Assembly: GCF_050320075.1 (NCBI RefSeq)
Contig: NZ_CP190018.1
Direction: 5' to 3' (one strand)
DNA from: Escherichia coli
GTDB lineage: Bacteria > Pseudomonadota > Gammaproteobacteria > Enterobacterales > Enterobacteriaceae
DNA: 64,000 nt
The position numbers and the translations under genes are program-made. Of the stretch, positions 58,730 through 62,134 are shown piece after piece. The notes under the pieces were generated by a model. That model saw only the letters and a list, made by a program, of their open reading frames with translations, was not told where the DNA came from and made no database searches. Each line of letters starts with the position of its first letter. The first letter of the stretch is position 1.

Positions 58730-59862
58730 GACTGAAGATTCTCCGCAAGCCATGATGCCAGCTCGCCCGGTGTCATGGCGGCTATTTGTGCGCCGACATT
58801 AACCAGCGCCTGGGCCGTATCGTGGTCATAGCAAGGTGTTGCGGTGCTATCGAGCGCCGCCAGTCCCAGCACTTTGATGCCGCTCTGGACACACTTTTTC
58901 ACCTGATGCGTCAGTAATGATGATGAACCCCCTTCGTAAAAATCGCTCACGAGGATAATGACGCTTTTCGCTGGTTGTTCAATAAGTTGCCGACCATATT
59001 CCATGGCACTGGCGATATTGGTTCCGCCGCCTAATTGCACTTTCATTAATAACTCTACCGGATCGGCAACGTCTGCCGTGAGATCAACCACGCTGGTGTC
59101 AAACGCCACCAGATGGGTACGAATACCGGGTAACTGCCATAAACAGGCCGCCATCACCGCTGAGTGGATCACCGAGTCAACCATCGATCCGCTTTGATCA
59201 ACCAGTAAGACCAGTTGCCATTGATCGCTATGGCGCTTAATGCGGCTGTTAAAGCGGGGGGATTCGATATACAACTTGCCGTGTTGCGGATGCCAGTGTT
59301 GCAGGTTGGCACGCAGCGTACTTTTGAAATCGAAATTACGCGCCAGTGGAATAAATGAGCGACGGCGGCGATCGCGGACACCAGAAAAAGCCTGGCGAAC
59401 TTCCTTTGCCAGTCGCGCCATAATCTCTTCAACAACCTGGCGCACTATCCGGCGAGCGGCAGCCAGCACTTCGGGATTCATCAGATGTTTGGTGTGCAAA
59501 ACGGCGCGTAGCAGGCTTTCAGAAGGCTGCATACGTTCCAGTACGTCGAGATTCGTCACCACATCTTCAATGCCATAGCGCAGCACGGCATCGCTTTCCA
59601 GCCGCTCGATCACCTGTTGCGGAAACAGCGTGTGAATACTGTTGATCCACTCAGGGGTGGTGAGATTTGAGCAACCTAATCCACCGGAGCGTTCACCACG
59701 CTGGAGCCGTTCAGGATCGCGCCCATACAGCCACTCCAGCGCGTGGTCTATCTGCCGGGCATTGTCATCCAGCCCACAAAGGGTCGTTTCTGCCGCTTCG
59801 CCAAGAATTAATCGCCAGCGTTGTAGCTCACGGGTGGTCAGAAGATCGTTCAGTTCAGACAT
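58726..59862 (-). CDS. yehP: von Willebrand factor A domain protein YehP
   Basis: 378-aa protein from ATG at 59862 (MSELNDLLTTRELQRW...); MIDAS motif DQSGS in LVLLVDQSGSM. Confidence 0.88.
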   Translation of the reverse strand: MSELNDLLTTRELQRWRLILGEAAETTLCGLDDNARQIDHALEWLYGRDPERLQRGERSGGLGCSNLTTPEWINSIHTLFPQQVIERLESDAVLRYGIEDVVTNLDVLERMQPSESLLRAVLHTKHLMNPEVLAAARRIVRQVVEEIMARLAKEVRQAFSGVRDRRRRSFIPLARNFDFKSTLRANLQHWHPQHGKLYIESPRFNSRIKRHSDQWQLVLLVDQSGSMVDSVIHSAVMAACLWQLPGIRTHLVAFDTSVVDLTADVADPVELLMKVQLGGGTNIASAMEYGRQLIEQPAKSVIILVSDFYEGGSSSLLTHQVKKCVQSGIKVLGLAALDSTATPCYDHDTAQALVNVGAQIAAMTPGELASWLAENLQS

Positions 59863-62134
59863 GGAAAACTCCCCAGTGTTGCAGCGATGCCAGTGCCTGC
59901 TGTTCGAGTTGTTGATGATGTGCAATGGCTTGCGGTGGACAATGCAACGGCATTTGCAGTGCCGAAACGGGAAGTTGCGCCAGTTGATAATGCTCAAACA
60001 CCTGATGCGCCAGCGTCCCGCGTTCTCGTGGTGGTAGCCAGGCCATCGCCGCGCGTAAATCGGGCAGGGCGTTAATAAAATCGTCGTTACTCAGTTGATT
60101 TAAATGACTACTGAAACCGGCGATAAATGCCGGCTGACAGGCCAGTTGATGGCGGGCCAGCGCCAGCAAACCGTGCAGCGCTTCGCCGGATTGTGCCGGG
60201 GATAATTGCGCCAGCATTGTCAGCGCCGCTTCGGCACTGGCGTTGGGATGTTCCAGACGCATTAGTGCGCCAAGAGCCGCGCCGCGATCCAGCGCCGGGG
60301 CATGAATCGCCTGACTGCGGCGCTCCAGTAAGGCTACCGCCGCAGAAAGCGAAACGCCGGGTAAATTAACGCCGCTATGTAGATCGCGCAGGATATGGCA
60401 AAGCGCCTGCCAGCTATGCAGGTGAGCGTGAAACTCCTTTTCCTCCGGTTTGCCGTTGGATTCACACAGCCAGAGTGTGCGATCGATAGCCGCGCATAAC
60501 GTCGTCTGCAATATCTGCGCGCCTTGCATACCGCTGATTTCATCTAACCGCCATAAGGCATATAGCACTTCCAGCGCCTGGCCCATTTCGGCAAATTGAT
60601 TTTCCTGGGCGATTAATAATGTAAGTTGCTCCAGTAATTGTTGACTGAAAGACGCCAGACCCGCTAACGCCGCCTGGCTAAGACATGTGGTGATGATGCT
60701 GATTCCACCCGCGTCCAGCATATCGGCTTCTAATTTATGGCGTGCGGCTTCCTGGAGTGTGGCACCAAAGCAGGCGGCCTCAATCAATGCCGCATGCTGG
60801 CTAAGCGGGCGGGTTAATTTCCAGCATTCTTCACCGTTGCCTGCAAGTGACAGTGTACTTCCCTGCTGGCGCACAACCCCTGGGATCTCCAGTATTGCCA
60901 ACCGATGTAACACCTGACTTTGCGCCAGTCCATCGGGGGTAAAGCGATTTAAGGTAAGCTCCGCCGGAAGAGAGATTCCGGTACGTTCCAGTTCGCAGGT
61001 GACATCTTTTGGCAGAGGCGGTTGTGGCGTAGAAGGGGCAAGTTTACCGAATCCGTCACCCGCTAATGTGTCTATCAACGTTAGCAGAATCGGATCGGTA
61101 TCGGGATGAATAACGCCGCGATAGCTCCACGGCAACGGCGCGTTCAAGGCTTCTTTAATCAGCGAGCCTGCTATGGCATCCAGCCAGTCAGTGCGTAACG
61201 GTAGTGTATGACCGCGCAACTGTGCCAGCGCCATCGCATGCAGATGAGCGGCAGCCATATCAGCGGTAGAAGCGGGCAATTTGTGCTGGCGCAAACGGGT
61301 AAGGATAGTTTTTAGCAGTTGTTCACCGGCCTGCTGTAGGCCCCACTGCCAGCACCAGTTTTGCCAGACCGGGGCAGGCATACCAGAAAGGTATCCTGCC
61401 AGCACATCAAGGCGCTTTTCACTGTAGGGGGTGAGATAACAACCTGTAACGGCATCTGCCAGCTAGGGCAATTCCGGCGTGTTAATTTCCTGCGTGTATT
61501 CGCGCCACATCTTTGCCAGTGCCGGAGCATGCCAGCCGCCGCAGACGACTAACACGTCGCCATTGTTTTGCTGCATCGCCCATCCAATCCAGCGGGCCAT
61601 AAAGGCTTCGCGCTGACGATTGAGGGCATCTCCGGGGGAATCGCCCCGCAGTTGTGCAAAATAGTGCGCCAGCGCAGAGGGTAATGCAGTTTGCTGGCTT
61701 TCATCTTCGAACAAGTGATCCCACAGGGTGTCGCTGTTATCCATGCGGGTGGCACGCAGCAGTAAGGTCTGGCTGTCATCTTGCGTATCGGGTGATTCGT
61801 CTTCTTCTTCACTCTGCGCCCAGCAAGGCAAATCGATGAAGTAAGTTTGTGCCTGAATACGACGTGCGGCTTGTAGCGCCTGCCACTCCGGCGAAAATTC
61901 AGCAAATGGCGTCCAGGCACCACGCCCGGGGGCTGCACCGTCCTGATACTGGCAATAACTGTAAATAGCTACCGGAAGCTGGTGGGCTAAAAACAGTTCG
62001 TCTACCCGGTCATTAAAATCAGCCGGGCCTTCAATCAACACGTATCGTGGCCGCTGGCTTTCGATTAACGATTTCACCAGCCGGGCGCAGGCCGGACTAT
62101 GATGCCGGATGCCGACAATTAACGGCTCGCTCAT
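59855..62134 (-). pseudogene. yehM: yehM interrupted by an in-frame amber (TAG) codon at codon 224
   Basis: ORFs 61463-62302 and 59855-61405 are in the same frame, separated only by TAG at 61463-61465; ATG 62134 to stop 59855 is exactly 760 codons. Confidence 0.8.

Follow-up and report, generated by a model that had tools for sequence, protein, structure and literature searches.

Results

The yehM frame and its amber codon

The 64-kb stretch of E. coli DNA analysed here (64,000 nucleotides; the window) carries the yehL-yehM-yehP-yehQ operon on its minus strand. Two entries in the list of open reading frames of the window, 61463..62302 (-) and 59855..61405 (-), lie in the same reading frame, and continuous translation from 62134 to 59855 gave 760 codons, with codon 224 as the sole internal stop besides the terminal one. 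A sequence-only reading of this DNA had described one frame split by TAG at 61463-61465, of normal YehM length and broken by a single nonsense mutation without rearrangement. Our analysis bore this out. The 760 codons correspond to 759 amino acids plus stop, as in K-12 yehM, and the two alleles aligned colinearly over 2,280 nt with 83 substitutions and no indels. The resulting pseudogene (DUF5682 family; 59855..62134, minus strand) is annotated by PGAP with an 'internal stop' in M217 and YZLc1-3.

Around the stop the minus strand reads CCG GAA TTG CCC TAG CTG GCA GAT GCC, with the amber codon at 61463..61465. K-12 yehM has TCG (Ser) at codon 224, as do 206 genomes that share the haplotype of the window, and as read from these alignments the ancestral codon is TCG, which differs from TAG by C to A at 61464 (G to T on the plus strand). 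The same reading had suggested CAG as the probable ancestor, and this is not what the alignment revealed. In all, 25 codons differ between the window and K-12 alleles with a changed amino acid and 53 without, which suggests purifying selection on yehM where the gene is intact.

Upstream of the stop lies a translatable N-terminal remnant of 223 codons (61466..62134, minus strand), encoding an alpha/beta domain of TraB/ChaN/EreA-like fold. Its Shine-Dalgarno-like GAGGAA, read from the sequence at 62141..62146 (minus strand), overlaps the yehL stop TGA (62147-62145). The C-terminal remnant, codons 225-759 plus stop (59855..61462, minus strand), is predicted to be untranslated and comprises a beta-strand (residues 228-236) followed by HEAT/ARM-like helical repeats. 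No convincing ribosome-binding site precedes the first in-frame GTG (61405) or ATG past the amber codon.

The yehL lesion and the operon

The yehL gene (62145..63222, minus strand), which encodes a MoxR-type AAA_5 ATPase of the YehL subfamily, carries a second lesion of the same haplotype that had been overlooked in the earlier reading. This deletion removes 11 bp after codon 118 (junction 62868/62867), and PGAP annotates the gene as 'frameshifted'. The new frame ends at TGA 62769-62767, and the predicted product of 151 aa contains Walker A and lacks Walker B. Downstream of yehM, yehP (58726..59862, minus strand) is intact and encodes a VWA_CoxE domain; at the yehP ATG the two genes share 8 nt (ATGTCTGA), the last of yehM. 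Also intact is yehQ (56729..58729, minus strand), which overlaps yehP by 4 nt and encodes a 666-aa SWIM zinc-finger protein. A sigma-70-like match, TTGCAA-17-TATAAT (63423..63451, minus strand), sits in an AT-rich region (43-44% GC) upstream of yehL and is, as a consensus match, a candidate promoter of the operon.

Profile searches assigned YehL to AAA_5 (E=2.6e-34) and YehP to VWA_CoxE (E=5e-71), so that a MoxR AAA+ protein of the YehL subfamily and a VWA protein are encoded in one operon, the ATPase being frameshifted in the window. In an NCBIfam search, YehL gave only sub-threshold matches to the GvpN and MadB AAA families, and YehM, YehP and YehQ gave nothing. YehL is one of seven MoxR subfamilies, and no client is known for it (PMC3893208). 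In K-12, H-NS binds at the yehL intergenic region (PMC3686432).

The operon diverges by about 3-4% among E. coli lineages, more than our control locus. The K-12 cluster has its own lesions, namely an internal stop in yehQ and, upstream of yehI, a DUF4132 gene that is likewise broken. In S. sonnei yehM and yehL are deleted (PMC12795559), and an ST131 sublineage carries a transposon in the metG/DUF4132/yeh region (PMC9334617). The yeh cluster is thus decaying independently in different lineages.

Family and fold of YehM

We collected 2,265 YehM homologues, of which the diverse ones measure 700-840 aa and align in a single stretch over residues ~5-756. Orthologues therefore do not end at codon 224: they are single proteins, unbroken at this codon, and the downstream part is no separate conserved gene. 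Orthologues ending there would, by the sequence-only reading, have refuted its claim. Intact yehM is present in K-12, WP8-S18-ESBL-07 and AR_0014. An intact orthologue, with about 97% DNA identity to the colinear window copy, matched Pfam DUF5682 (PF18934) at E=8e-98, its residues 20-715 aligning with positions 1-695 of the 727 in the model. A PDB sequence search with YehM gave no match at E<=1. The literature search returned nothing on the function of DUF5682 or yehM, and DUF4132 appeared only as the ST131 transposon insertion site.

The isolated N-terminal domain was predicted with a confident fold (pLDDT 92.5) whose last helix spans residues 203-213, and it showed structural similarity to solved TraB/ChaN/TIKI/EreA-like members. 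Its invariant residues are R10, H11, E35, H51, E83, D101, R175, G199 and H202. Residue 224 falls in a gap-rich, unconserved stretch where occupancy is 0.82 and no residue dominates. The match to some homologues is interrupted at residues ~223-230 by additional residues on the homologue side, and such a two-part match suggests a linker. Two short homologues that start near residue 220-236 were followed up as possible natural splits, and both proved to be artefacts. P0138 is a fragment that begins 44 nt from the edge of its contig, and the scaffold of P0077 is frameshifted, with the N-domain encoded upstream in a different frame. No naturally split yehM was found among them.

Frequency of the two lesions

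A 63-nt probe centred on TAG matched exactly in 214 of 5,426 complete E. coli genomes (~4%). With TCG in place of TAG, the probe matched exactly in the 206 genomes mentioned above, and in the 95-99% identity band the TCG probe had 4,149 further matches versus 1,066 for the TAG probe. The identical 2,280-nt yehM allele occurs in at least 60 complete genomes among the matches listed. Among complete genomes, 211 records are at least 99% identical to the window allele, and the next record in a spread listing stood at 96.5%. As these 211 are fewer than the 214 TAG carriers, no intact allele at >=99% identity to the window yehM was apparent.

Because the exact haplotype recurs in 214 of the 5,426 genomes, TAG is no sequencing error. 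A mistake of sequencing or assembly in this record is a general possibility for any single-base difference and has nothing more in its favour; we regard it as practically inconceivable, given that 214 complete genomes, assembled independently by many laboratories from isolates of many hosts, have the same base, and that public collections contain at least 1,000 contigs encoding the exact 223-aa product.

A probe for the yehL junction gave 1,393 full-length matches, of which 1,178 contain the 11-bp gap and 215 are exact, a count that excludes 221 half-length matches of 100% identity. All eight TAG carriers inspected are annotated with both yehL 'frameshifted' and yehM 'internal stop', and no genome with only one of the two lesions was identified.

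Lineages and recombination

Carriers include NMBU_W05E18, of ST38 and phylogroup D (PMC7311804), and M217, Sanji, 51008369SK1 and others of ST167 (PMC7193042), the backbone of which is phylogroup A. At the yeh locus NMBU_W05E18 and M217 showed 0 differences in 24,146 bp. At the control locus the two are 1.93% divergent, whereas M217 and K-12 differ there by 0.037%. Across the 64 kb equivalent to the window, M217 and K-12 are 1-6% divergent. The ST167 strain AR_0014 has yehLMPQ intact and of K-12 type. The TAG carriers compared were 0-2 SNPs apart over tens of kb.

The double-lesion haplotype is, on this comparison, one that moved into part of ST167 by homologous recombination, because 24 kb are free of SNPs relative to ST38 while the backbones differ by 1.9% at the control locus. 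The import covers no less than the 64 kb equivalent to the window, and the lesions probably entered by hitch-hiking. The closest relative of the window is YZLc1-3, with two SNPs over about 63 kb, and its backbone is not K-12-like. The idea that the window itself comes from an ST167 genome like M217 was rejected, as the two differ in IS content and in a K-12-like tract at 34-50 kb.

The paired lesions (the yehL 11-bp deletion and yehM S224amber) mark one haplotype cleanly and are easy to type. That haplotype connects ST38-type strains, part of ST167 and the lineage of the window, and it records a recent chromosomal import into ST167.

Discussion

We consider it highly probable that yehM is a lineage-inherited nonsense pseudogene which shares one haplotype with the yehL 11-bp deletion, so that both first genes of the operon are inactivated. 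One C-to-A transversion would have changed the Ser codon 224 from TCG to amber TAG, and together with the yehL frameshift it would knock out the first two genes of yehL-yehM-yehP-yehQ. Release factor 1 would end translation at codon 224, leaving at most a 223-aa TraB/ChaN-like fragment that lacks strand 228-236 and all of the helical C-terminal region. About 1.6 kb of yehM mRNA, and about 620 nt of yehL before it, would then both be untranslated and exposed to Rho-dependent polarity. Translational coupling to yehP would also be broken, with the entire module probably shut down. By analogy with work in K-12 and with textbook nonsense polarity, we expect silencing, polarity and absence of protein here. 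The loss of yehL and yehM is probably near neutral, because the operon is H-NS-silenced in K-12 anyway. Some residual function of the 223-aa fragment may persist, as yehP and yehQ are intact and the stop lies in a variable linker past an N-domain that looks complete. The TAG in yehM is an ordinary loss-of-function mutation, and its pseudogene status is already recorded in RefSeq/PGAP. Its mechanistic weight is small: genes of an uncharacterised, H-NS-silenced operon have decayed in a routine way.

It is extremely unlikely that yehM is still functional through read-through of the amber codon, whether a suppressor tRNA decodes it (supE, or one of the supD type that inserts Ser) or termination at UAG-C is leaky. 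Residue 224 belongs to an unconserved linker in which the identity of the inserted amino acid would probably matter little, and TAG is followed by C, a context in which E. coli terminates weakly. The yehM frame beyond it is also free of other stops; however, this is expected of a young lesion, with carriers separated by so few SNPs. The frameshift in yehL leaves the module without its ATPase regardless of codon 224. In three carriers, M217, YZLc1-3 and NMBU_W05E18, the anticodons of glnV and glnX are wild-type CTG, not CUA, a result that bears on supE rather than on suppressors of the serU, tyrT or leuX types, and there are no tRNA genes inside the 64-kb window. The supE44 allele was exact in 155 genomes, and 60 of the 60 among the matches listed bear laboratory or K-12-type strain names. 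Partial read-through in a supE/glnV44 host, which the sequence-only reading had envisaged, is therefore not what these carriers point to. Moreover, supE inserts Gln and would not restore the wild type, because the ancestral residue is Ser. The yehM case cautions against taking an amber stop for suppressor biology. A useful product of the stop, either a stand-alone TraB/ChaN-like N-domain freed from the helical C-terminal region or a gene of two polypeptides, is in our view very unlikely. Such a product would suit a stop just past helix 203-213 of a compact, confidently predicted domain, with every invariant His, Glu and Arg retained, a probable linker at the split and a 223-aa ORF with its own Shine-Dalgarno sequence. 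Yet the stop removes the conserved strand 228-236 along with the LxPxS...GY motif, the short homologues gave no natural split, and the in-frame GTG/ATG past the stop have no ribosome-binding site to start a second polypeptide. The upstream yehL frameshift and H-NS silencing further oppose meaningful expression.

The loss of yehL and yehM could also be adaptive, for instance if they belonged to a MoxR-VWA-SWIM conflict or defence module whose loss helps ST38 and ST167 to keep plasmids or prophages. We think this unlikely. The carriers do include globally successful carbapenemase and ESBL lineages, K-12, S. sonnei and an ST131 sublineage each have independent lesions in the cluster, and the divergence of the operon exceeds that of the control locus. 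Against this, a search of PADLOC-DB v2 matched no defence family at E<=0.01 for YehL, YehM, YehP, YehQ or YehI, and the size of the ST167 import, with 24 kb identical to an ST38 genome, means that hitch-hiking suffices. In addition, AR_0014 thrives within ST167 with an intact operon, about 96% of complete genomes are without the allele, and the codon differences from K-12 point to purifying selection where yehM is intact. Decidedly more doubtful is the idea that yehLMPQ, next to WGR/DUF4132 genes, forms an uncharacterised conflict or quality-control module and that its knock-out haplotype was favoured upon transfer from an ST38-type donor to ST167. If true, a favoured knock-out would mean that a barrier to plasmids or phages was relieved, or that a stand-alone TraB-like fragment was released.

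Several known systems place the inherited double knock-out in context. The K-12 yehQ pseudogene and broken DUF4132 gene resemble the lesions of the window in that a nonsense or frameshift mutation interrupts an otherwise full-length frame, is flagged by PGAP and falls in the same cluster. The pattern is reversed: the window has an intact yehQ beside broken copies of yehL and yehM, and K-12 the opposite. In K-12 laboratory strains, supE44 (glnV44) suppresses amber alleles that, like yehM here, have an in-frame UAG in a non-essential gene. There a tRNA-Gln with a CUA anticodon would insert Gln, which position 224 of YehM would probably tolerate; unlike supE44 hosts, the yehM TAG carriers are natural isolates, three of them with wild-type glnV and glnX. 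With the TraB/ChaN/TIKI/erythromycin-esterase (EreA)-like superfamily, the YehM N-domain shares a fold at a sequence identity of only 10-16%, and there is no Pfam, NCBIfam or PDB sequence match between YehM and these families. H11, E35, H51, E83, H202 and R175 are present as invariant residues and are possible counterparts of the catalytic or metal-binding positions in TraB/ChaN-type motifs. In contrast to members of that superfamily, the domain is fused to a helical repeat of roughly 500 residues. For the uncharacterised DUF5682 family, a TraB/ChaN-like domain plus helical repeat is a first structural description, which could guide work on YehL-type MoxR proteins. Finally, YehL (AAA_5) and YehP (VWA_CoxE) resemble the MoxR AAA+/VWA pairs RavA-ViaA, CoxD-CoxE and NorQ-NorD in being encoded in one tightly packed operon. 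The yeh operon differs from these pairs by its additional genes for a DUF5682 protein and a SWIM zinc-finger protein, and in the window both the ATPase and the DUF5682 genes are disrupted.

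Results

The stop in yehM (window 59855-62134, minus strand) is real but ordinary: the gene is a nonsense pseudogene of recent, lineage-inherited origin, and its neighbour carries a frameshift. The ORFs 61463..62302 (-) and 59855..61405 (-) lie in the same reading frame, and translation from 62134 to 59855 gave 760 codons, with stops only at codon 224 and at the end, just as the sequence-only reading of this DNA had described. The minus strand around codon 224 reads CCG GAA TTG CCC TAG CTG GCA GAT GCC. K-12 yehM is of equal length (2,280 nt) and aligned without gaps, with 83 substitutions; of the codons that differ, 53 are synonymous and 25 non-synonymous, the stop counted among the 25. 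Given this ungapped alignment and the single internal stop, one nonsense mutation and not a rearrangement had been correctly recognised. The replaced codon had been guessed to be CAG, which was wrong: comparison with another E. coli yehM, as had been proposed for a check, gave TCG (Ser) at 224 in K-12, and the coding-strand change is C to A at 61464.

A 63-nt probe for the TAG version of the window haplotype matched exactly in 214 of 5,426 complete E. coli genomes, with 1,066 in the 95-99% band; its TCG version matched exactly in 206, with 4,149 further genomes in that band. These counts, together with K-12, establish TCG as the ancestral codon. The entire 2,280-nt allele was found at 100% identity in at least 60 genomes and at ≥99% in 211; the next record in the spread listing stood at 96.5%. 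The exact 223-aa product is recorded on at least 1,000 public contigs, and RefSeq (PGAP) labels yehM in carrier genomes as a pseudogene with 'internal stop'. Sequencing error as the source of TAG is ruled out.

DUF5682 covers YehM as a single Pfam unit (residues 20-715), and a search of 1.84 billion representative proteins returned 2,265 homologues. Diverse ones (30-64% identity) are 700-840 aa long and match residues ~5-756 in one stretch, so that orthologues do not end at 224, a possibility the sequence-only reading had named as fatal to its claim. The two short homologues followed up as natural splits were rejected: one is cut off by a contig end, and the other comes from a scaffold with a frameshift. 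When 111 full-length homologues were aligned, residue 224 fell in a gap-rich, unconserved stretch (212-230) between a conserved VVCGGxHxPxL block, with H202 invariant, and LxPxS...GY...M at 234-258. AlphaFold2 modelled full-length YehM with pLDDT 93.2 and pTM 0.91, and residues 1-223 alone with pLDDT 92.5. Residues 1-213 form an alpha/beta domain, which is followed by a loop, the strand 228-236 and a long helical region. By these models, truncation would leave the TraB/ChaN-like domain nearly complete but remove strand 228-236 and the entire C-terminal solenoid. The DUF5682 model joins a HEAT/ARM-like helical repeat to an alpha/beta domain of TraB/ChaN/EreA-like type, in which His, Glu and Arg residues are invariant (models m1c89f5347aee and m9edc7d9758df); we found no literature on DUF5682 and no solved relative by sequence.

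The second lesion, overlooked when the yehM stop was recognised, lies directly upstream in yehL (62145-63222, minus strand), where 11 bp are missing after codon 118: K-12 reads GAAGATCAAA-TCAAGTATGGC-TGGAAC and the window GAAGATCAAATGGAAC, joined at 62868/62867. Out of frame from there, translation reaches a stop at 62769-62767, predicting a YehL of 151 aa that keeps Walker A and loses the remainder of the AAA_5 domain (residues 79-220). A probe spanning the deletion junction gave 1,393 matches along its full length; 1,178 of these contain the gap, leaving 215 genomes with an exact match. A count of 436 genomes at ≥99% was rejected, since 221 were half-length matches. Both lesions, annotated as 'frameshifted' (yehL) and 'internal stop' (yehM), were present in 8/8 carriers inspected: M217, RIVM_C037794, E30, 23CRST050, 15.TR.026_OXA, 266917_2, NMBU_W05E18 and YZLc1-3. 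The haplotype is already flagged in RefSeq, and it has spread in part by recombination.

YehL is a MoxR-type AAA_5 ATPase and gives its name to one of seven MoxR subfamilies (PMC3893208). Downstream of yehM, yehP (58726-59862, minus strand; VWA_CoxE domain) and yehQ (56729-58729, minus strand; SWIM zinc fingers) are intact. The yehM Shine-Dalgarno sequence overlaps the yehL stop, and the genes overlap by 8 nt (yehM/yehP) and 4 nt (yehP/yehQ). Long untranslated stretches reduce downstream expression by nonsense polarity, and yehP and yehQ expression is probably lowered in this way. The AT-rich region upstream of yehL contains a sigma-70-like match, and yehL and yehM are de-repressed in a K-12 hns/stpA mutant (PMC3686432). 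No component matched any PADLOC defence profile.

Carriers occur on different backbones. NMBU_W05E18 is ST38, phylogroup D (PMC7311804), and ST167, a derivative of ST10, includes M217, Sanji, 51008369SK1, SCEC020007, AR_0149-0151 and others (PMC7193042). At an unlinked control locus (asnB-dpiB, ~41 kb), M217 diverged from K-12 by 0.037%, and NMBU_W05E18 by 1.93% from M217 and 1.85% from K-12. At the yeh locus, NMBU_W05E18 and M217 showed 0 differences over 24,146 bp, and across the window-equivalent 64 kb M217 was 1-6% divergent from K-12 throughout. The ST167 genome AR_0014 has intact, K-12-type yehL, yehM, yehP and yehQ. The differing backbones, the identical yeh locus and the K-12-type operon of AR_0014 show that homologous recombination brought a large segment of ST38 type, extending over no less than the window-equivalent 64 kb, into part of ST167, and the yehL and yehM pseudogenes entered with it. 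Between E. coli lineages yehLMPQ (window 56700-63300) diverges by ~3-4% in a patchy mosaic, about twice the 1.9% by which phylogroups A and D differ at the control locus.

The window itself belongs to a third background, set apart from M217 by a K-12-like tract at ~34-50 kb and by its insertion sequences. The tract (about 34000-50500) has 0-2 mismatches per kb against K-12; the flanking sequence on either side diverges from K-12 by 1-6% and is the same as in ST38 and ST167-M217, so that the region is a recombination mosaic. Of the 5,426 complete genomes, only 2 have the 46-54 kb junction at 100%, among them YZLc1-3, from a chicken in China. That genome is two SNPs and one IS1 position away from the window; its backbone diverges by 0.46% from that of NMBU_W05E18 and by about 2% from that of K-12.

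Other features were noted in the window. The catecholate siderophore receptor gene cirA (18815-22240) is interrupted at about 20168-21610 by an IS3-family element of IS150 type (1,443 bp) whose insertion duplicated 3 bp (ACC) of target, and cirA is split likewise in YZLc1-3; M217 carries a 2-bp deletion at cirA positions 268-269, and the two lineages therefore knocked out cirA independently. In NDM producers, loss of cirA has been associated with resistance to cefiderocol. A 768-bp IS1 at about 9756-10523 replaces ~4.4 kb of M217 and K-12 (psuK, psuG, psuT, yeiL and the rihB 5' end), apparently through a deletion associated with IS1; YZLc1-3 is arranged in the same way, and its rihB is annotated as partial. 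A second IS1 (about 33239-34006; 93% identity to the first, 9-bp target duplication) lies near the yeiS 3' end; in YZLc1-3 this site is empty and an IS1 lies at the end of dusC, the only structural difference found between that genome and the window. PGAP annotates mdtQ (about 39068-40504) as intact in M217, AR_0014 and YZLc1-3, which is near-identical to the window there; K-12 mdtQ is frameshifted, although this stretch otherwise hardly differs between the window and K-12.

Discussion

The same cluster decays elsewhere. K-12 carries yehQ as a pseudogene, and a DUF4132 gene upstream is one too; yehM and yehL are missing by deletion from lineages 2 and 3 of S. sonnei (PMC12795559), and in a sublineage of ST131 the metG/DUF4132/yeh region harbours a resistance transposon (PMC9334617). 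The metG-yehK interval of carriers holds three large tandem DUF4132 genes, all intact and one with a WGR domain (6710-17956 of the sequence designated L012, outside the window and upstream of yehK), and that of K-12 two, one a pseudogene. There is little support for the idea that losing this uncharacterised MoxR-VWA module was adaptive, or that the TraB-like fragment functions on its own, because hitch-hiking explains the distribution and AR_0014 keeps an intact operon within ST167.

Read-through by a supE/glnV44 suppressor, also suggested from the sequence, is not supported. The supE44 allele (glnV, CTA anticodon) was exact in 155 complete genomes, and the strain names among the 60 matches listed are all laboratory or K-12-type (e.g. 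C600, DH5alpha, DH1, J53, RR1, S17-1). M217, YZLc1-3 and NMBU_W05E18 each keep the wild-type CTG anticodon in both tRNA-Gln(CUG) genes; no tRNA genes were found within the 64-kb window. The base directly 3' of the yehM TAG is C, a weak termination context, so trace read-through at codon 224 is possible, but it is irrelevant while yehL is broken. Suppression by supE inserts glutamine, whereas the ancestral residue 224 of the window is serine; an S224Q YehM might function, since position 224 is unconserved, but even then the module is without its ATPase.
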